64,000 nt of DNA from Candidatus Marinacidobacterium sp. (GCA_965262645.1 CBDHFO010000017.1:540024-604023), one strand, 5' to 3'. Shown: positions 6,266 through 54,853, counted from the stretch's first letter. Notes: generated from the sequence alone by a model not told the origin. Made by a program: numbers and translations.

Positions 6266-6599
6266 GGTTCCGATTCGCCACTCTATCAGGGACTGGGGAC
6301 GCCGGCCCTCCGAGGGGCGTTGCCTCAGGGAACTGGGCAAGAACCGCACCCTACCGACCCGTGTGCAGAGCGCGCAACCGTGGGATCGCCACCCATGGCA
6401 GTTGCGGATCAGTCGCTGGAATCGTTGCAAATGTGCTGCTGGAATCGTTGCAAAACCTCTGTTGGCCCGGAAGTTCCTCCGCGAAGGACGACCGGCTGAG
6501 CGACAGCACGGTTTCGTTCGCCTCCGGCGGACAGCGCCCGGCCCCAGCGGGAGAAACCCACATGTTCGGGTCCTCCTGCACATCCCGCCGGCTATGAAT

Positions 6600-6700
6600 G
6601 AGACGCGGCCCTCACCGCGAATTGGCGTAGCGTCGTCCCCACTGGTTTCGCGCTCCCGCGCGATGCCGGTGTGAACACCGGCGCTCCTGTCGCGCGCCAT
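6600..6700. repeat. Dispersed repeat, family GGTTTCGCGCTCCCGCGCGATGCCG (copy 1 of 4)
   Basis: The core hairpin TCGCGCtcccGCGCGA is shared with copies at about 24715, 30437 and 54716. Confidence 0.6.
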
Positions 6701-10772: not shown

Positions 10773-11177
10773 TCAGCGCCGGCGGCGGCGGCGGCGCTGC
10801 ACGACCTGCACCTGGTCCGGTTCGGTGACGCCGATGAAAAGCTGATCGTTCTCCTGCATGACCTCGCCGGTGATTTGCAGGTTCCGTCCCTCGTAGCGCT
10901 TCACCGGATCCAGTTCCTTCCACAGGTGCACATGGGTTTCGGGGATGAGGGCCAGGAAACCGGACGGGAAGGTGATCCGAACGCCGGTGCCGCGGATCAG
11001 CCGCACATCGAGGGCTCGACCCCCGACGGTGATCTCCTCGCCGACGTGATCGGGGCCCACCTCTCCGACCCCCACAACCTCCACCTCTTCCTCGGCCGGG
11101 GGATCCTGCGCGAACGCCGCGGGGGTGATCAGGACCGCAAACGCGGACGCAGCCGCGAGTTTGAAGCGGAATCTCAT
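10773..11177 (-). CDS. Secreted OB-fold-like (BOF/YgiW-like) small protein with C-terminal hepta-arginine tail
   Basis: 134 aa. Signal peptide MRFRFKLAAASAFAVLITPAAFAQDPP, then ...ITGEV...FIGVTEPDQVQVVQRRRRRRR. Paralog of 11460..11888. Confidence 0.55.
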   Translation of the reverse strand: MRFRFKLAAASAFAVLITPAAFAQDPPAEEEVEVVGVGEVGPDHVGEEITVGGRALDVRLIRGTGVRITFPSGFLALIPETHVHLWKELDPVKRYEGRNLQITGEVMQENDQLFIGVTEPDQVQVVQRRRRRRR

Positions 11178-11459
11178 GGCAGCCTCCTCGGTCGGCCCCT
11201 TCGTGGCGGCGGCCGGGAGAACCGCGCGAGCCAGCCGGGACCAGCGCCGTACCTCTTTTAGCGAGAAGCGGGCTCCCAAGTCAATAGGCGACTTGGAAAG
11301 GGGCCTCCTCGGCCCCCCGAGCAACCCATTTCCGGCCCGCCCGCGCCGGCACGGTGGAACCGTGCGGATGCGCTCAGTGCGGAGTCCCGGACCGCTGGCA
11401 GCGCTCAAACCGGGGACGGCGCCGGCCGCGCCGGTCGCCGGAACCAGGTTCGGATCGGG

Positions 11460-23629: not shown

Positions 23630-24601
23630 ATGCCCCGAGCCATCCGCATCCAGCAGCCCGGCGGACCCGAGGTGATGACCCTCGGCTCCGTCCCCGAGTC
23701 CGCGCCCGGTCCCGAAGACGCCCTCGTCCGGGTCGAAGCGGCCGGAGTCAATTTCATCGACACCTACCACCGCACCGGGCTCTACCCGGTCCCCACCCCG
23801 TTCACCCCCGGGGTGGAAGGCGCCGGCGTCGTGGAAGCCGTGGGGTCCGGCGTTTCGGACCTGTCGCCCGGGGACCGGGTCGGCTGGGTCATGCAATTGG
23901 GCAGCTACGCGGAGCAGGCCGTGCGGCCGGCGGCGAAGCTGGTCCGGCTTCCAGAGGGCGTGACGACCACGCAGGCCGCCGCCGCGCTCCTCCAGGGCAT
24001 GACCGCGCACTACCTCGTCCGCTCCACCTTCCGGGTGCAGTCGGGGATGCCGGTGCTGGTCCACGCTGCCGCTGGCGGAATGGGCCTGCTGCTCTGCCAG
24101 ATGTGCCGGGCGCTGGGAGCGCGGGTCTTCGGCACCGTCTCCACGGAAGCGAAGGCGCAGGCGGCGCGGGCCGCGGGCGCCGACCACGTGATCCGCTACA
24201 CCGAACAGGACTTCGCCGAGGCGATCCGCGAGGAACTCGGAGACGAGAAGCTCGCGGTCGCCTACGACTCGGTGGGGGAAACCACCTGGCGAAAGAGCCT
24301 CGGCCTCCTCCGGCCGCGGGGAATGCTCGTCCTCTACGGCCAGTCGTCCGGACCGGTCCCCCCGATCGACCCCCTGCTGCTTTCCCAAAACGGATCCCTC
24401 TTCATCACCCGGCCCACCCTGGGGGACTACGCCGCAACCCCGGACGAACTGAAGTGGCGCGCCGGGGAAGTCCTCGACAGCGTCGCCAGCGGCAAACTCA
24501 ACCTCACCATCGACCGGGAACTACCCCTAGCCCAAGCCGCCGAGGCCCACCGCCTCCTCGAGGGCCGCGCCACCACCGGCAAACTGATCCTCCGCCCGTA
24601 A
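23630..24601 (+). CDS. qor: NADPH:quinone oxidoreductase (zinc-binding MDR family)
   Basis: 323 aa. VEAAGVNFIDTYHRTGLY, AAGGMGLLLCQ Rossmann motif. Confidence 0.85.
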   Translation: MPRAIRIQQPGGPEVMTLGSVPESAPGPEDALVRVEAAGVNFIDTYHRTGLYPVPTPFTPGVEGAGVVEAVGSGVSDLSPGDRVGWVMQLGSYAEQAVRPAAKLVRLPEGVTTTQAAAALLQGMTAHYLVRSTFRVQSGMPVLVHAAAGGMGLLLCQMCRALGARVFGTVSTEAKAQAARAAGADHVIRYTEQDFAEAIREELGDEKLAVAYDSVGETTWRKSLGLLRPRGMLVLYGQSSGPVPPIDPLLLSQNGSLFITRPTLGDYAATPDELKWRAGEVLDSVASGKLNLTIDRELPLAQAAEAHRLLEGRATTGKLILRP

Positions 24602-24604
24602 GCG

Positions 24605-24880
24605 CGGACGGGAGAGACCGCCGGTCTTCGGACCGGTGAGGCGGCCCGCAGGCTGGGAAACCGCGGATCGCCAACCGCGAAGAAGCGCAGGAACGGCTTG
24701 GAACGCCGACCTCTGGTCGGCATCGCGCGGGAGCGCGAAACCAGCGCCGATGACACTGCGCTATGCCCACGTGAGTTACGGGCGGACCCGATCGAGAGGG
24801 TTTCTCCCGGTGGGGCCCGGCACCGTTGCCGGAGACGGACGAAACACCGACTGCCACTTACTGAGAGTTCAGAATAATGA
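24605..24880. repeat. Dispersed repeat (GGTCGGCATCGCGCGGGAGCGCGAAACC family, reverse orientation) plus AT-rich promoter/operator region of hipB-1
   Basis: Near-identical over about 110 bp to the reverse complement of 54660-54740. Contains the TTTCTCCCGGTGGGG motif. Confidence 0.6.
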
Positions 24881-24888
24881 ACTGAATC
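24866..24888. promoter_or_regulatory. Palindromic putative HipB operator (TTCAG-N9-CTGAA) in an AT-rich stretch upstream of hipB-1
   Basis: gagTTCAGaataatgaaCTGAAtcgg, immediately 5' of the hipB-like ORF in otherwise 70% GC DNA. Confidence 0.4.
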
Positions 24889-24916
24889 GGTTGTATTGTC
24901 CTATATTACATACCGT

Positions 24917-25258
24917 ATGCCATCAGACCGCGACGCCACGCTCCCCCTCCCCACCCTCCCCATGCTCCGTAAACTGGGCGCCGATCTCCGGGACGCCCGC
25001 CGGCGCCGCCGCATCCCAACGGCGCTGATGGCTGAACGCGCCATGTTCAGCCGCACAACTTTGCACCGAATCGAACGCGGCGACCCCGGGGTCGCGCTCG
25101 GCAACTACGCGCGCGTTCTCTTCGTGCTCGGCCTCCATCGGCGGCTCGGAGATCTGGCCGATCCGGGACAGGACGTCGTCGGGCTGGATCTGGAAGCAGA
25201 CCGGCTTCCCGAACGCATCCACCTGCGGGATCACCTGTTCGAGTCGGAGGGGTCCTGA
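24917..25258 (+). CDS. hipB: XRE-family HTH antitoxin (HipB-like), module 1
   Basis: HTH LRKLGADLRDARRRRRIPTALMAERAMFSRTTLHRIERGD. Stop overlaps the hipA-like start by 1 nt. The ORF could start at TTG 24896. Confidence 0.6.
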   Translation: MPSDRDATLPLPTLPMLRKLGADLRDARRRRRIPTALMAERAMFSRTTLHRIERGDPGVALGNYARVLFVLGLHRRLGDLADPGQDVVGLDLEADRLPERIHLRDHLFESEGS

Positions 25259-26523
25259 TGGACCGACGCGCGCTGGTGTATTCCGGCCGGAGCGACTTCA
25301 GCGGCTGGGTGGGACGGCTCTGGCTACGGGTGCGCGCAAATCGCGGAAGCGCTTCGTTCCAGTACGACCCGGGCTGGCTGCAACAGCCCGCCCGCTTTGC
25401 CCTGGATCCCACCCTGGAGCTGGGCGGCGGCGCCTATCACACGGAATCCGGAAGGCAGTTGTTCGGCGCCTTCGACGATTCCGCCCCCGACCGCTGGGGA
25501 CGCATGCTCCTGCGCCGCGCCGAACGGCGGGACGCACAAAGGGAAGGACGACTCCCGCGCGCCCTCTCCGAGGGCGATTTTCTGCTCGGGGTGGACGATG
25601 AAACGCGCCAAGGAGCCCTGCGCTTTCGGGAAACACCGGAAGGCCCCTTCCTCGCTCCCCCTTCCCCCACCCGCGTTCCGCCGCTCATGGAACTGCCCCG
25701 TCTGCTCGGCGCCGCCGACCGGGTCGCCGCCGAATCGGAAGACGATGACGATCTGCGACTGCTCCTCATGCCCGGTGCCTCGCTGGGCGGCGCACGGCCC
25801 AAGGCGTCGGTCCGGGACGGCGACGGGCGTCTTGCGTTCGCGAAATTCCCGAAGACCGATGACGAATGGAACGTCCCGCTATGGGAAGCGGTCGCGCTCA
25901 CGCTGGCCTCGCGGGCCGGGATCACCACTGCGAGCTGGCGTCTGGAGACCGTGAGCGGCCGCCGCGTGCTGGTCCTCCATCGGTTCGATCGCGAAGGCGG
26001 GCGCCGCATCCCGTTCCTCTCCGCCATGACGATGCTGGGAGCAACCGACCACGAGCCGCGCTCCTATCCCGAAATCGCCGAGGCCATTCGCCGTTTCGGC
26101 GCCGCTCCCGCCGCCGACCTGAAGGAACTCTGGCGGCGCATCGTGTTCACGGTGCTGATTTCGAACCGGGACGACCACCTGCGCAACCACGGATTCCTTC
26201 GCCCGGGAGACCGCGGCTGGCGCCTTTCCCCGGCCTACGACCTGAACGCCACCCCGGCGCATGCTGGCGGCCGGTTTCTCGCCACCGCCATCGTCGCAGA
26301 CGACACGCGCGCCTCGCTGGAACTCGCTTTCGAGACCGCTCGCTACTACGGGATTACACCTTCGGCAGCCCGCGAAATCGCCGCGGACGTCGCCGCGATG
26401 GTCAGCGGCTGGCGTAACGAGGCATCCCGGTTCGGCCTCCGCCGCAGCGAGCAGGAACTCATGGCTTCGGCCTTCGAGCACGAGGAGCTCGACCGCGCCC
26501 GGCGCTCTCCGACCCTTCTTTGA
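25258..26523 (+). CDS. hipA: HipA-family serine/threonine kinase toxin, module 1
   Basis: 421 aa. HipA N-terminal coupling domain, SLGGARPK (P-loop-like) and NRDDHLRNHG catalytic motif. Confidence 0.8.
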   Translation: MDRRALVYSGRSDFSGWVGRLWLRVRANRGSASFQYDPGWLQQPARFALDPTLELGGGAYHTESGRQLFGAFDDSAPDRWGRMLLRRAERRDAQREGRLPRALSEGDFLLGVDDETRQGALRFRETPEGPFLAPPSPTRVPPLMELPRLLGAADRVAAESEDDDDLRLLLMPGASLGGARPKASVRDGDGRLAFAKFPKTDDEWNVPLWEAVALTLASRAGITTASWRLETVSGRRVLVLHRFDREGGRRIPFLSAMTMLGATDHEPRSYPEIAEAIRRFGAAPAADLKELWRRIVFTVLISNRDDHLRNHGFLRPGDRGWRLSPAYDLNATPAHAGGRFLATAIVADDTRASLELAFETARYYGITPSAAREIAADVAAMVSGWRNEASRFGLRRSEQELMASAFEHEELDRARRSPTLL

Positions 26524-26620
26524 CCGGAGTTCGCTCCGGGATTGACCATGGCTCCGGCCGAATTGACCATGGCTTCGCCAAAACGGCCGCCGTCCGCCCG
26601 AGGGACGATCGGCGGCTTTG

Positions 26621-26690
26621 TCGTGGTTCGACGACAACACTAGAATGTCCATGACACGCGACAATTTAAAAATATCGTCGTTCGACGACA
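26621..26690. promoter_or_regulatory. Two 16-bp palindromic direct repeats (TCGTNGTTCGACGACA) in an AT-rich leader, putative HipB-2 operators
   Basis: TCGTGGTTCGACGACA and TCGTCGTTCGACGACA 54 bp apart, flanking tagaatgtccatgacacgcgacaatttaaaaata. Confidence 0.45.
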
Positions 26691-26708
26691 TACCAGAGGG
26701 GTTGATCC

Positions 26709-26975
26709 ATGTTCATTCGTTCCGCCCGCACCCTCGGGATGCTCCTGCGCGAGCAGCGACGGCGGCGAGGACTGACCCAGGCGCAGCTCGCCCACCGGGC
26801 GGGCGTCAGCCGCCAGTGGCTGAGTAGTCTCGAACGGGGCCGGGAAGGCGCTGAACTCGGCCGCGTGCTCCGAACGCTGGCGAGTGCCGGGATCGTCCTG
26901 AAGTTCGAGGAACAACCCAAGGCCGGTCTCGACCTGGACGCCATCATCGAGGCTCACCGGTCGGGGCCGGAATGA
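26709..26975 (+). CDS. hipB: XRE-family HTH antitoxin HipB, module 2
   Basis: 88 aa. LTQAQLAHRAGVSRQWLSSLERG. 4-nt overlap with hipA. Confidence 0.75.
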   Translation: MFIRSARTLGMLLREQRRRRGLTQAQLAHRAGVSRQWLSSLERGREGAELGRVLRTLASAGIVLKFEEQPKAGLDLDAIIEAHRSGPE

Positions 26976-28243
26976 CCGAACTCGCGGTGGTCGCGAACCG
27001 CCGGCTGCTGGGGACCGTGACCCGCTCTCCCGGCGGCGGCCTTTCCTTCGCCTACGAAGCGGCCTGGCGGCGAGATCCGGATGCCTTCCCGCTCTCGCTT
27101 TCGCTGCCGCTCAGGGCCGACCCGTTCCCCCGCGCCGCCGTCGAGCCGTGGCTCGCCGGCCTCCTCCCCGAAGACGAGGACGTGCTTCGCGCCTGGGGAG
27201 TCCGCTTTCAGGTCTCGCGGCGGAATGTATTCGGCCTGCTCGGCGAGGTGGGCGAGGACTGCGCGGGCGCCGTGCAGTTCGTGCGGCCGGAGCGGCTCGA
27301 CCGGGTGCTCGGCTCCGCCCCGCCGCCCGTCGAGTGGTTGACGACCGACGAGGTCGGGCTCCGGCTCGCCGACATCCGGTTCGACCCGGCGCTCAGCCGC
27401 CGCCCCGAAGACCCCGGACGGTTCTCCCTGCCGGGCGTCCAGCCGAAGACAGCGCTGCTCTTCGACGAGGGCCGGTGGGGACTCCCCGCCGGGGCGACCC
27501 CGACCACCCACATCCTGAAGCCGGAAAGCCGGCGGTTTCCCGGACTGGTCGAGAACGAGTGTCTCTGTCTGCGGCTCGCGCGCGCCGTTGGCCTCCCCGC
27601 CGCGACGAGCCGGACGGAGCGTTTCGGGGATCAGCTCGCGCTAGTGATAACCCGTTACGACCGCCGCAAACCCGGATCCGACTGGGTCCGCCTTCACCAG
27701 GAGGACTTCTGCCAGGCCCTCGGACTGCCACCGGAGCGGAAATACGAAAACGAAGGCGGCCCGACGGTGCGCGCGATGGTGGACCTCCTCCGCGCGGAGT
27801 CAACGAGGCCCGACGAGGATGTCCGCAACCTGACGCGCGCGGTGATGTTGAACTGGATACTCGGCGCCACGGATTCGCACGCGAAGAACTTCTCGCTGCT
27901 GATCGGCCGCGCCGGGCAGACCCGGCTGGCGCCGCTCTACGACATCGCGACTTTCCTTCCCTATGCAGAGGATCCGCGGAGGCTCAAACTCTCGAACCGG
28001 ATCGGCGGGGAGTACCGCGTCTACGGCATCGGCCGCCGCCAGTGGGAGCGCTTCCGCACCGAGAACGATCTCCCGTGGGACCCGGTGGCGACGTGCCGCG
28101 AGCTGGTTGGCCGGGTCCTGGACACTCTGCCCGCCGTGGTCTCCGACGCCCAGGCCGGTCCGGGCGACCGCCGGGTAATCGACGAACTCGCCGAGCGCTT
28201 GACGAACCGCGCCGAAGCCGCCCTCGTCCAGCTGCGGGATTGA
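26972..28243 (+). CDS. hipA: HipA kinase toxin, module 2
   Basis: 423 aa. FSLPGVQPK, GATDSHAKNFSLL. Canonical HipA N and C domains. Confidence 0.85.
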   Translation: MTELAVVANRRLLGTVTRSPGGGLSFAYEAAWRRDPDAFPLSLSLPLRADPFPRAAVEPWLAGLLPEDEDVLRAWGVRFQVSRRNVFGLLGEVGEDCAGAVQFVRPERLDRVLGSAPPPVEWLTTDEVGLRLADIRFDPALSRRPEDPGRFSLPGVQPKTALLFDEGRWGLPAGATPTTHILKPESRRFPGLVENECLCLRLARAVGLPAATSRTERFGDQLALVITRYDRRKPGSDWVRLHQEDFCQALGLPPERKYENEGGPTVRAMVDLLRAESTRPDEDVRNLTRAVMLNWILGATDSHAKNFSLLIGRAGQTRLAPLYDIATFLPYAEDPRRLKLSNRIGGEYRVYGIGRRQWERFRTENDLPWDPVATCRELVGRVLDTLPAVVSDAQAGPGDRRVIDELAERLTNRAEAALVQLRD

Positions 28244-28722
28244 CAAGGAGTTGACGGGAAGCCGGACAACGCCCGATACCAGGGACCGTGGAGCCACGCG
28301 CGGCTGGCGAATATCGGGGCATGATCCCGTGGGGATCGAGGCATGATGCGGCACCGGTCGACCCGTGATCCGCCTCGATATAGCCGCGTGATCGGATCGC
28401 GGCATCATCCGCTGACCATGCAATTACGCTACTGAGCAAGTTTGCTCAATGGGGTAATCAAGAGCTTGCGCATCCCGGCGCAGGGTGTAACTCTCCGAGC
28501 CGGTCTGTCTCCTGATCCGCCGTGTCGACGGCGGGCGATTGCAAGAGGGTGTCATGTTCGCGCGGACACCGGAGTAGCCATCGTCCCCCGAGCCAGTTCG
28601 CTGAACAGGGGTCTGACCGTCATCGTGGAGGACTTGTCCCATCTCGCGAAACCGAAGCATGAACCCACGACCGGACTTCGGGTCTGCCCGAATCGACAGT
28701 TGGCGGTAGGATCGGGGTTGCG

Positions 28723-28944
28723 ATGACCCGGCACTTGACCGCAATCGTCGAACGTGAGGGCGACGGCTACGTCGCCTTGTGCCCCGAAGTGGATGTCGCG
28801 AGCCAGGGAGACACCGTCGCCGAAGCCCGCGCCAATCTCAGGGAAGCGCTGACCCTGTTCTTCGAAACCGCCTCTGCGGAAGAACTCGACGGGCGCCTAC
28901 GCGGAGAGATCTACGTGACGCAGGTCGAGATCGCTGTTGGGTAG
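28723..28944 (+). CDS. hicB: HicB-family antitoxin (UPF0150)
   Basis: 73 aa. TAIVEREGDGYVALCPEVDVASQGDTVAEARANLREAL. Overlaps hicA by 8 nt. Confidence 0.75.
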   Translation: MTRHLTAIVEREGDGYVALCPEVDVASQGDTVAEARANLREALTLFFETASAEELDGRLRGEIYVTQVEIAVG

Positions 28945-29164
28945 GCTGCGCGTTCTTTCTGGCCGGGACGTCTGCCGCATCCTCGCCTCCCATGGTTTCG
29001 TGGAGGTGAGGAAGCGTGGCAGCCATGTGGTGGTCCAGAAGATCGAGGCCGGCAGCACAATCACGGTGCCGATTCCCGATCACCCGGAGTTACGCATCGG
29101 CACACTGCTGTCGATCATTCGGCAGTCCGGTGTCCCTCGGTCAGAGTTCGAACGCAGTTCCTAA
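28937..29164 (+). CDS. hicA: HicA mRNA-interferase toxin (YcfA-like)
   Basis: 75 aa. LASHGFVEVRKRGSHVVV...ITVPIPDHPELRIGTLLSIIRQSG. Confidence 0.8.
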   Translation: MGRLRVLSGRDVCRILASHGFVEVRKRGSHVVVQKIEAGSTITVPIPDHPELRIGTLLSIIRQSGVPRSEFERSS

Positions 29165-29282
29165 ACGACCGCCGCGACCAGGGCCCTGACGGCGCCCCAC
29201 TGCACAGGCCGATCCATCCAGACGCCAAGCTGCGCGGCCATTCCTAGAGTGTCCATTTCCTGAACCGTCTCGGTCTGGGCAG

Positions 29283-29545
29283 GAACATGTCGCACCGGCC
29301 CGATCCGCCGGGCGAACATGTCGCTCCAGCGGAGTCGGCTGGCCGGGTGAACATGTCGCAGTGGGGGCCGGCTGGGCCGCTACATGTCGCAATAGCCGGA
29401 ATTCCGGGCCCACATGTCGCTGTAGAGCAGCCGGCTGGACGGGAACATGTCGCACTAGCCCGATCCGCCGGGCGAACATGTCGCATTAGCGGAGCCGGCG
29501 GGACGTCAACATGTCGCAGTAGCCAAATCCGGGAACCGGTAAATT
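29283..29545. repeat. Array of 8 tandem ~32-bp units: conserved GAACATGTCGCA followed by a variable CCGG-centred palindrome (iteron/centromere/operator-like; not CRISPR)
   Basis: ACATGTCGC at about 29285, 29316, 29349, 29382, 29412, 29445, 29476, 29508. Spacings are 30-33 bp. Units 1 and 6 are nearly identical. Confidence 0.8.
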
Positions 29546-29597
29546 CCACCTTCGCGGCAGACCGCCGGCTGGGTGCGGGGCTGTGAGAGGAGGCGAG

Positions 29598-30356
29598 ATG
29601 TTCAAGCGGAACGCGGTGGTGATCATGGGAGCGGCAGGCGCCGGGGCGCTATTGCTCGGCGCGGGAGCGCGCCCCCAGACACACTGGGGATACGAGGGGA
29701 CGCACGGTCCGGAGCACTGGGGCTCGCTTGACCCCGGGTTCGCCGTCTGCAGCAACGGGCGGGAGCAGTCGCCGACCGATCTCACGGGCGCCGAACCGCA
29801 GGACCTGTCCGAGATCGTCTTCGACTACGCGCCGAGCCCGATTTCCATCCTGAACAACGGCCACACGATCCAAGTCGACTACCAGCCGAGGAGCGGCATC
29901 GTCCTCGACGGGACGCGCTACGAACTGGTCCAGTTTCATTTCCACCACCGGAGCGAGCACACCGTGGACGGCGCCGGCTTTCCCCTGGAGATGCATCTGG
30001 TTCACGCCGGCGCGGACGGAGCGCTCGCCGTAGTCGGCGTCTTCCTCGAGGAAGGCGGAGCTAACGAAGCCCTCGCGCCGGTCTGGCGGCACCTGCCGCG
30101 GGAGTCCGGCCCCGCCGCAGTCGTCGAAGGGACGGTGGACGCCGCCGCGCTGCTCCCCGAGCAACGCAGGACGTGGCGCTATGCGGGTTCGCTCACCACC
30201 CCGCCCTGTACGGAGGGCGTCTCGTGGCTGGTGATGACGGAGCCCGTGACGGCTTCGAGGGAACAGATCGAGGCGTTCAGCGCGATCTTCCCCGTCAATA
30301 ACCGCCCGGTGCAGCCGCGGCACAGACGCCGGCTGGTCACCGATCGCGCGGGCTGA
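29598..30356 (+). CDS. Alpha-class carbonic anhydrase, periplasmic
   Basis: GGAGG RBS. Signal peptide. QFHFHHRSEHTVDGAGFPLEMHLVH alpha-CA signature. Confidence 0.85.
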   Translation: MFKRNAVVIMGAAGAGALLLGAGARPQTHWGYEGTHGPEHWGSLDPGFAVCSNGREQSPTDLTGAEPQDLSEIVFDYAPSPISILNNGHTIQVDYQPRSGIVLDGTRYELVQFHFHHRSEHTVDGAGFPLEMHLVHAGADGALAVVGVFLEEGGANEALAPVWRHLPRESGPAAVVEGTVDAAALLPEQRRTWRYAGSLTTPPCTEGVSWLVMTEPVTASREQIEAFSAIFPVNNRPVQPRHRRRLVTDRAG

Positions 30357-30369
30357 GCGGTCGCGCTAC

Positions 30370-30500
30370 CCGGGATCAGGCGGAGGTGCGGCCCTTACGC
30401 TGGCAGAGCGCAGCGTCACGGGTGCGGGTTTCGCGCTCCCGCGCGATGCCGGCCGGAGACCGGCGCTCCCGCCGTCCCCGCGCTTCTTCCCGATTGGCGT
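30370..30500. repeat. Dispersed repeat (GGTTTCGCGCTCCCGCGCGATGCCG family), copy 3
   Basis: ...gggtgcgggtttcgcgctcccgcgcgatgccggccgg... between the carbonic anhydrase and katG 3' ends. Confidence 0.6.
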
Positions 30501-30535
30501 TGCGCGGGTTCCCGGCCCGGTCGGGCCGCGATGTG

Positions 30536-32734
<2,199 letters not shown>

Positions 32735-54590: not shown

Positions 54591-54763
54591 TGGGGTGGAG
54601 GGCGGTGGTGTTTGGATGATGGGGCGGAGGGCGGTCGCACGGTGAGCGTCGTCCCATCCGGGACCGGGAGAAAGTGCGGAACTCACATCGGCACTACGCA
54701 GCATCATCGACGCTGGTTTCGCGCTCCCGCGCGATGCCGACCTGGAGGTCCGCGTTCCCGCAC
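54591..54763. repeat. Repeat element (GGTTTCGCGCTCCCGCGCGATGCCG family, copy 4) flanked by a 47-bp duplication of the DASS gene 3' end
   Basis: 54544-54590 and 54764-54815 are about 94% identical (tcctcacctgcctgttcgccgtcttctgg...). Internal tandem duplication of ggtggtgtttggatgatgggg. Confidence 0.65.
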
Positions 54764-54853
54764 GTCCTCACCTGCCTGTTCGCCGTCTTCTGGTTGCCGG
54801 TGGTCTTCGGCTGATCACTTCGACTGATCACGGGTCATTAGCATTCCGGTGCC

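Follow-up and report, generated by a model that had tools for sequence, protein, structure and literature searches.

Several toxin-antitoxin (TA) modules that follow each other between two housekeeping genes raise the question of how they came to lie there: as an inserted mobile element, as an old resident block, or as the cargo of a site that holds different genes in different strains. Such a locus is present in a stretch of 64,000 nucleotides (nt) from Candidatus Marinacidobacterium sp. (GCA_965262645.1, CBDHFO010000017.1:540024-604023; the whole stretch is termed "the window" and all coordinates refer to it unless a related locus is named). Six TA genes, all on the plus strand, form two hipBA modules and one hicBA module between the core gene qor and the gene of an alpha-carbonic anhydrase. 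A preliminary description of the window had regarded them as an integrated accessory or mobile island. According to the present analysis, a chromosomal accessory/defence hotspot is the likely setting: the segment, about 4.9 kb long (roughly 24637-29534), would be its strain-specific content and consists of three autonomous type II TA operons arranged head to tail; the hotspot would be situated between the core genes qor and carbonic anhydrase/katG of an uncultured lineage of the Acidobacteriota. The content itself is three ordinary TA pairs side by side, a familiar arrangement and no new kind of system.

Gene content and integrity of the cluster

Open reading frame (ORF) calls and searches against Pfam and NCBIfam recovered the six genes at the positions and with the family assignments originally given: hipB1 (24917-25258) codes for an XRE/HTH_31 antitoxin of 113 amino acids (aa; an alternative TTG start is present at 24896), hipA1 (25258-26523) for a HipA-family Ser/Thr kinase toxin of 421 aa belonging to a subfamily distinct from Escherichia coli HipA, hipB2 (26709-26975) for a HipB-type helix-turn-helix (HTH) antitoxin of 88 aa, hipA2 (26972-28243) for an E. 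coli-type HipA kinase toxin of 423 aa, hicB (28723-28944) for a small HicB/UPF0150-type antitoxin of 73 aa without DNA-binding domain, and hicA (28937-29164; TTG start) for a HicA mRNA-interferase toxin of 75 aa. All six genes are intact, and the reading frames overlap at the hipB1/hipA1, hipB2/hipA2 and hicB/hicA junctions by 1, 4 and 8 nt, respectively. The ratio of nonsynonymous to synonymous substitution rates (dN/dS), determined against the orthologues in two related loci, L085 and L082, where substitutions sufficed, ranges from 0.05 to 0.23 (hipB1, 0.05-0.10; hipA1, 0.17; hipA2, 0.20-0.23; hicB, 0.09 versus L082); this purifying selection indicates that the TA genes are being maintained. 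In the PADLOC search, the two HipA proteins gave weak matches to PDC-M03A only.

As regards the flanking genes, the assignments as qor (23630-24601) on the left and alpha-carbonic anhydrase (29598-30356, plus strand; Carb_anhydrase, 6.8e-42) on the right were borne out by Pfam and NCBIfam. The ATG at 29598, which is preceded by GAGGAGG, is a likelier start of the anhydrase gene than the GTG at 29583; the gene calls in relatives have 252 aa. The cluster comprises three type II TA modules, and the count of four that had been given for the window is reached with a vapBC-type module on the minus strand (690-1348; PIN toxin 690-1103 and Phd/YefM antitoxin 1100-1348 by Pfam) that lies separate from the cluster.

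Variation of the qor locus among relatives

A protein search with qor yielded many close relatives on contigs of Mb scale. Eleven loci were compared with the window, and nine of them share the ScpB-ScpA-TrpS-UvrC-qor flank. The UvrC relatives that bear names (58-62% identity) are all metagenome-assembled genomes of Acidobacteriota or Vicinamibacteria. The interval between qor and the anhydrase gene is not conserved across the syntenic relatives, and the comparison proposed in the preliminary description revealed three versions of the locus without the TA trio or any TA gene: L081 (qor 99% identical at the aa level) possesses a DUF4389 gene and a katG fragment followed by anhydrase-katG, L086 (91%) an ERG4/24-family gene followed by anhydrase-katG, and L087 (83%) glmS. 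The TA genes are present in whole or in part in four others. In L085 (qor 95%), a Beta_protein/HTH_3 pair precedes the whole trio (including an intact hicA), a tandem array and the anhydrase gene at 93% nt identity; in L232 (approximately 100%), a PDC-S01-type ATPase gene, a DUF8371 gene and a 5' fragment of the anhydrase gene stand ahead of hipBA1-hipBA2 at 95% nt identity; L212 (96%) has the trio with an insertion sequence (IS), IS21, inserted between hipA2 and hicB; and L082 (96%) has kept hipB1 and hipBA2, has lost hipA1 by deletion and contains a premature TAG in hicA. Directly past qor, at the point where the trio would start, L083 (qor 98%) carries Vsr/Dcm type II and type III restriction-modification genes, and L084 (98%) PDC-S01, DUF8371 and PDC-S20/KAP NTPase genes; the PADLOC matches in these two loci are Vsr, type II and III methyltransferases, PDC-S01 and PDC-S20. 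L213 and L214 contain HipA1 homologues at unrelated sites. The assertion that the cargo is purely made up of addiction modules thus holds for this genome and fails for its relatives, which stack restriction-modification, PDC-S01/DUF8371, KAP NTPase and Beta_protein/HTH genes at the site, beside the trio or in its place.

Homology to the window stops at 24600-24636 in all relatives and resumes at about 29535-29555 where the anhydrase gene follows (L081, L082), i.e. approximately 45-60 nt before the anhydrase start; from these breakpoints, the variable segment closely fits the limits that were first proposed for the cluster (24866-29560). In its conserved core flanks, its strain-differing cargo including restriction-modification and candidate defence genes, the lack of visible mobilisation genes and the evidence of exchange through the flanks, the qor site resembles the core defence hotspots (cDHS) of Pseudomonas aeruginosa (PMC10250203) and those of E. 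coli (PMC10121019). It differs from them in that the cargo of this particular genome consists of TA genes only, in that the lineage is uncultured, and in that the junctions are marked by a recurrent 38-bp palindrome and by elements resembling repetitive extragenic palindromes (REP).

Two groups of side observations were made at this locus. In L084 (12707-16711) and L232 (12495-16523), the gene of a PDC-S01-type AAA_14/DUF4143 ATPase is immediately followed by one for a DUF8371 protein of 1334-1342 aa; the two DUF8371 genes share approximately 63-70% nt identity and have no PADLOC match, and ATPase and DUF8371 protein may form a defence pair. Furthermore, a duplicated 3' fragment of katG (L081, 11994-12476), a tandem katG pair (L086, 13215-17607) and a duplicated 5' part of the anhydrase gene (L232, 16766-16961) are remnants that point to repeated rearrangement at the locus.

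Mosaic divergence: exchange versus vertical inheritance

The divergence between the window and L085 is uneven along the locus. The synonymous divergence (dS) amounts to 0.32 for qor and 0.28-0.33 for hipBA1, as compared with 0.014 for hipB2, 0.087 for hipA2, 0 for hicB, 0.106 for hicA and 0.064 for the anhydrase gene. Correspondingly, nt identity is 68-78% at the hipA1/hipB2 junction, mostly 94-100% from approximately 26700 to approximately 30500, apart from 28100-28500, where it declines to about 90%, and 80-87% inside katG. The anhydrase of the window is 97% identical (aa) to that of L085 and 81% identical to that of L081, though L081 is the nearer relative in UvrC, qor and KatG; the anhydrase gene is situated outside the indel and inside the recently exchanged tract. 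Since hipB2 and what follows it up to the anhydrase gene are L085-like and UvrC, qor and KatG are L081-like, the pattern is, as judged from the sequences, best explained by a recent homologous exchange of this tract between lineages.

The same data bear on the view that hipBA1-hipBA2-hicBA is an old resident block of this locus that was inherited vertically, its patchy occurrence being the product of repeated deletion and replacement. Order and location of the genes agree between the window, L232, L085, L082 and L212 (HipA1 70-95% and HipA2 80-96% identical), L082 with its hipA1 deletion and hicA nonsense codon offers decay intermediates, and the composition of the genes is native. However, the nearest relative by core genes, L081 (UvrC 97%, qor 99%), is devoid of the trio, which more distant relatives possess; the dS of 0-0.11 in the hipB2-anhydrase tract versus 0.32 in adjacent core genes (L085) requires recent lateral exchange; and the toxins of L212 are 70-80% identical as compared with 90-96% for its core genes. 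A purely resident history is for these reasons considered unlikely, albeit the least unlikely of the alternatives.

The interpretation as exchangeable hotspot content is therefore preferred, and several points weigh against it. At least five lineages carry the trio at this very site, with HipA1 proteins that are as little as 70% identical, so that the pattern could in part reflect old vertical inheritance with losses. L083 and L084 were covered to 10 kb, and since L232 stacks new cargo ahead of the trio, these two loci may carry the trio farther downstream. With regard to the gene products, HipA1 is without a characterised close relative, and HicB scores below every Pfam threshold (HicB_lk_antitox, 0.009, 16.6 versus 27; DUF7387, 8e-4, 20.1 versus 27.9). 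Finally, it is location only that speaks for a defence role; the cargo may serve phage defence or stabilisation.

In the hotspot interpretation, the cargo would move by homologous recombination via the conserved flanks and not by an element-encoded recombinase. Such exchange through the flanks has been proposed as a possible way of movement for defence hotspots that are bounded by core genes and show no visible mobilisation functions (PMC10250203, PMC10121019).

Mobility functions and REP-like repeats

The reading as a mobile island stood in part only: the accessory nature of the segment follows from its absence from L081, L086 and L087, and its mobile nature found no counterpart in the window, as the interval 24600-29600 contains no integrase, recombinase or transposase ORF or domain, no tRNA is encoded in the window, and no direct repeats flank the segment. 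The comparison of codon usage with the flanks, which had been suggested as a check, pointed to a nearly native composition, though not uniformly so: relative synonymous codon usage (RSCU) correlates with that of the core genes at r = 0.97, and the GC content at third codon positions (GC3) is 0.74-0.79 versus 0.86-0.88 (about 0.09 lower in five of the six TA genes; hipA2, 0.87).

The region is bracketed by a 135-nt inverted repeat that encloses the TA genes together with the anhydrase gene and whose arms are 80-83% complementary: one copy (24641-24776, plus strand) is located just past the qor stop codon at the left edge of the variable interval, the inverted one (30394-30529, minus strand) between the anhydrase gene and katG. 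This repeat was rejected as the ends of an island because of further copies elsewhere in the window (54632-54770 and 6511-6696, both on the minus strand) and in relatives. It is a dispersed, intergenic REP-like element of approximately 90-135 nt with two GC-rich hairpins and the invariant core GGCATCGCGCGGGAGCGCGAAACC, of which 13 strong copies exist in about 250 kb of window and relatives (L082, L083, L085, L212 and others). Hairpin 1 shows compensatory changes; Rfam models gave no match in the window at the gathering threshold and none in 24550-30600 at E <= 1.

All things considered, it is highly improbable that the block is, or was until recently, a self-mobile island which integrated between qor and the anhydrase gene and whose iterons for replication or partition would be the tandem array. 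This explanation would account for the absence of the block from the close relatives L081, L086 and L087, for the bracketing inverted repeat and for the slightly lower GC3, and it would agree with the occurrence of HipA1-type genes on conjugative plasmids and of IS21 and IS66 near homologues. It is opposed by the lack of any integrase, transposase, rep or par gene, tRNA or flanking direct repeat, by the additional copies of the bracketing repeat and by the native codon usage (RSCU). Moreover, the modules vary independently of each other (L082 has lost hipA1, the trio of L212 is interrupted by IS21, and L085 and L232 have additional cassettes), and the array shifts its position relative to hicBA.

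The hipB2A2 module

HipB2 matches HTH_31 (1.9e-10) and HTH_3 (1.6e-8) in Pfam, couple_hipB (TIGR03070, 7.5e-18) and the E. coli HipB model (2.8e-4); HipA2 matches Couple_hipA (1e-24, 87.2 bits) and HipA_C (1.5e-52). The HipA_C scores of the two HipA proteins of the cluster are 166.6 and 178.8 bits against a Pfam cutoff of 30.5. Residues 4-331 of HipA2 align to E. coli HipA structures (6e-48), and the protein retains Ser152 in the motif SLPGVQPK, the ATP-binding Lys183, the catalytic Asp301/Asn306 and the Mg-binding Asp324. The module is comparable to hipBA of E. coli K-12 (clade I of Gerdes et al. 2021, PMC8262856) in that an 88-aa XRE-HTH gene overlaps a 423-aa kinase gene, and HipA2 shares with E. 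coli HipA the Gly-rich-loop Ser, the catalytic Asp/Asn pair and the Asp that binds Mg; in contrast, its C-terminal 90 residues do not align. Judging from these sequence features, HipA2 probably behaves like the clade I HipA proteins of PMC8262856.

Upstream of hipB2, a promoter-like region (26618-26691, plus strand; TTGTCG-17-TAGAAT) is flanked by two dyads, TTGTCG-N8-CGACAA (26618-26637) and ATATCG-N8-CGACAT (26672-26691). Both are by far the best matches in the window to their own position weight matrix (PWM) and are conserved in L232, L085 and L082; the homology of the window to L082 in hipBA2 begins at 26610. The 88-aa HipB2 probably binds these two TTGTCG-N8-CGACAA-type dyads. Compared with E. 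coli hipBA, the half-site is TTGTCG instead of TATCC, and two dyads are present instead of four; the N8 spacing of the putative operators, which the dyad ahead of hipB1 shares, is that of the E. coli hipBA consensus, TATCC-N8-GGATA. The spacer between hipA1 and hipB2 contains a 21-nt tandem repeat of 2.2 copies (26533-26574); with 68-78% identity to L085, which is devoid of one 22-nt unit, the spacer diverges more than any other part of the shared block.

The hipB1A1 module

HipB1 is likewise an HTH_31 protein (2.4e-6 in Pfam) and shares 40% identity with HipB2 over the HTH; its 113-aa reading frame from the ATG at 24917 agrees with the gene call in L085. HipA1 matches HipA_C (8e-49) and, close to the limit, Couple_hipA (2e-6, 28.4 bits versus a cutoff of 22.5), and its only sequence match in the PDB is the distant HipT of Legionella (1.7e-8). 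The S175-LGGARPK182 motif, K196, the RDDHLRN motif (D305, N310) and YD328 are invariant among 25 homologues of 59-81% identity. Both HipA proteins of the cluster accordingly retain the catalytic Asp and the P-loop motif. With 22% identity limited to the kinase core, they are indeed two distinct paralogues, as was claimed at the outset, and each is coupled to an HTH partner of its own (HTH_31 by Pfam in both cases).

The search for homologues of HipA1 yielded more than 8000 candidates, which in Acidobacteria and Pseudomonadota bear the annotation HipA family toxin, and HipA1-type genes are also present on plasmids of Alphaproteobacteria. An HTH_31 gene of 112-113 aa is located directly upstream of distant HipA1 homologues in other genomes as well (L213, L214), which identifies hipB1A1 as a conserved bicistronic module. 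In the Hip phylogeny, hipBA modules with an upstream HTH gene constitute clades I, II and IV-VIII, and experiments concern clade I only (PMC8262856). The HTH-then-kinase bicistron, the HipA_C core and the membership in a huge family of HipA toxins liken hipB1A1 to the uncharacterised clades II and IV-VIII (PMC8262856), e.g. to plasmid genes of Acidiphilium and Agrobacterium annotated as "HipA domain-containing protein". HipA1 differs by its identity of only 22% (kinase core only) to HipA2 or E. coli HipA, by an N-terminal domain that is barely Couple_hipA and by the catalytic motif RDDHLRNHG.

As a side observation, HipA1-type genes have IS21, IS66 or ISAs1 elements as neighbours, at most a few kb away, in four contexts unrelated to each other (L212, 10073-12171; L213, 9879-12168; L214, 12489-13260; L215, the Acidiphilium plasmid pACMV1, 1280-2413), and on pACMV1 a hipA gene is split by an IS.

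A GTTC-N8-GAAC dyad (24867-24882) is present upstream of hipB1, where it overlaps a -10-like AATAAT within a promoter-like site (24851-24878) detected by promoter scan; it is retained with differing spacers in L232, L082 and L212 and occurs one other time in the 64-kb window. HipB1 probably represses its own promoter at this dyad. Since the dyads of hipB1 and hipB2 differ and are each conserved in relatives, the distinct operator architecture attributed to the two hipBA modules is plausible, provided that the dyads act as operators. At the protein level, the 113-aa HTH protein HipB1 would restrain the HipA1 kinase, a member of a widespread, uncharacterised subfamily. By analogy with studied HipA kinases, the free HipA proteins would be toxic in that they phosphorylate an aminoacyl-tRNA synthetase, halt translation and trigger the stringent response; the targets of HipA1 and HipA2 may be of this kind.

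The hicBA module

HicA is well supported as a member of its family (HicA_toxin, 3.5e-17, 62.7 bits versus a cutoff of 27 in Pfam): its G-S-H30 motif, which includes the catalytic His, aligns with G-G-H of structure 1whz, and it also aligns to 5yrz. For the sub-threshold HicB protein, the assignment comes from homologues and structure. A search yielded 3705 homologue clusters, and members of the family match UPF0150, HicB_lk_antitox and DUF7387. The AlphaFold model (predicted local distance difference test score, pLDDT, 93) comprises three strands and two helices and neither an HTH nor a ribbon-helix-helix (RHH) domain; its best PDB match is 2yzt/TTHA1756 (Foldseek probability 1.0), with the annotated antitoxin 3k6q also listed, and the profile search found 2yzt at E 3.8e-5. 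Pentatricopeptide-repeat matches to the HicB family profile in the PDB search were discarded as spurious, no single stretch being above threshold.

The arrangement of the two genes had been called unusual. However, class 2 hicBA modules are defined by a small hicB of 63-103 codons without DNA-binding domain upstream of hicA, the two genes lying close together or overlapping, and this is the commonest bicistronic arrangement of hicA (PMC10865869, Gerdes 2024), so that the claim of an unusual gene order is wrong. Judged by its sequence and the structural model, the present module matches class 2. It is like TTHA1756 (2yzt) and TTHA1913 (1whz) of Thermus thermophilus, the best structural and sequence matches, in that a 73-aa HicB is encoded upstream of, and overlapping, a 75-aa HicA. 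It differs in the HicB protein that remains sub-threshold in Pfam and in the tandem array adjoining the operon in three genomes, a feature without description for the class in PMC10865869. HicA would be toxic by cutting RNA via its conserved His, and the 73-aa HicB would block HicA by direct binding.

The tandem array downstream of hicA

As described previously, an array of eight tandem units follows hicA (29270-29531, plus strand). The units of 30-35 nt are of two alternating types with the core (G)AACATGTCGC and are 65-85% identical to each other; the core ACATGTCGC occurs eight times in the window, always inside 29285-29517, as compared with 0.59 expected occurrences. The array is non-coding, as its period is not divisible by three and no family match was obtained for the ORFs that run across it. 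The core is matched eight times in the window and seven times in L085. L082 has 18 matches; its array is found between hipA2 and hicB, i.e. upstream of hicBA, and one degenerate unit remains between hicA and the anhydrase gene. No match was obtained in the trio-less loci L081, L086 and L087, nor in L212, which has hicBA. The designation "iteron-like" had to be abandoned: neither ORF calls nor Pfam searches revealed a rep or par gene near the array, the period is 30-35 nt, and copy number and position vary between strains. The array is instead regarded as a hypervariable minisatellite.

Scans of metagenome and viral sequences for AACATGTCGC-N19-26-ACATGTCGC returned unrelated arrays only, mostly of low GC content and with many different periods and units; they were judged to be chance matches, because nothing was conserved beyond the imposed core and no TA genes were nearby. 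A phage search with the tandem array gave no match.

A function tied to the TA genes, either as a decoy of HipB2 half-sites or extended operator, or as a repeat RNA akin to the ToxI of type III TA systems acting on the adjacent RNase toxin, is improbable. The array is present only together with the TA cluster and always adjoins hicBA, with no terminator predicted between hicA and the array. Its core includes the half-site WTGTCGY of the putative hipB2 operators, which clusters at only two places of the 64-kb window, the hipB2 promoter and the array. The units themselves were rejected as operators of HipB2, since it is the half-site only that is shared: the PWM of the full operator matches no unit (3 bits versus 30). 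A regulatory function would also suit class 2 HicB, which has no DNA-binding domain and hence leaves the regulation of the operon open (PMC10865869). Against any such function stand the occurrence of the array upstream of hicBA in L082 and downstream of it in the window, the hicBA of L212 without an array, copy numbers of seven, eight and 18 as expected of a neutral minisatellite, and unexceptional folding of the plus-strand RNA (z = -1.05).

In type III TA systems of the ToxIN type, near-identical repeats of about 36 nt directly precede a gene for a ToxN/AbiQ-type toxin. The window differs in each respect: the array is situated downstream of hicA, its units are heterogeneous in length (30-35 nt) and sequence (65-85% identity), unlike ToxI repeats, and no ToxN-type gene was detected by ORF calls and Pfam.

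The junction palindrome

The spacer between hipA2 and hicB (28244-28722) is, as originally noted, a non-coding gap of lower GC content (0.62 versus 0.68 in the window) that contains a palindrome; ORFs over this spacer have no family match. The palindrome TGAGCAAgtTTGCTCA (28433-28448) proved to be the core of a 38-bp imperfect palindrome (28421-28459; core TGAGCAA-gt-TTGCTCA), the right arm of which, TTGCTCAATGGRGTAATC, is unique in the window. Copies are present in L082 (11250-11288 and 12280-12311), L083 (11265-11300), L084 (11186-11224, with perfect arms of 17 nt), L085 (about 18165), L212 (9429-9468) and L232 (about 11150-11190 and 20894). Their positions coincide with junctions of the variable segment: the palindrome follows the REP-like element of qor and precedes unrelated cargo in L082, L083, L084 and L232, marks the deletion point of hipA1 in L082 and, in the window, L085, L232 and L212, separates hipA2 from hicB. 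The versions of the locus without TA trio and defence genes (L081, L086 and L087) do not contain it. Viral and plasmid collections yielded no copy with both arms; the viral scan for the arm gave 16 matches, none with a partner arm, which by a rough estimate is about the number expected by chance.

The palindrome may serve recombination or regulation, or it may be left over from a mobile element. A more far-reaching reading, to which these sequence patterns lend little probability, is that cassettes are stacked at the palindrome, as a site of recombination or insertion, by an integron-like system that builds the defence/TA hotspot in Acidobacteriota and works without a recombinase encoded nearby; as part of the same reading, the hypervariable ACATGTCGC array, too, could have a function as a non-coding component, in connection with hicBA or HipB2.

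Significance of the locus

Palindrome and copy-number-variable array are the only unexplained elements of the locus, and of the two it is the junction palindrome that might open up new ground, the uptake of cassettes by hotspots without an integrase being still an open question. With regard to the proteins, the subfamily of HipA1 is very large and has no characterised member, which makes the target of this kinase worth determining. With this locus, a phylum that is uncultured and has been little studied contributes a further example of two established patterns: the clustering of TA modules, often within defence islands (PMC10865869), and the accumulation of accessory and defence genes at hotspots which are bounded by core genes and exchangeable without visible mobility genes. 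In addition, the versions of the locus in the related strains (intact, toxin gene deleted, toxin gene with nonsense codon, split by an IS, and replaced) constitute a compact natural series for the turnover of such a hotspot.

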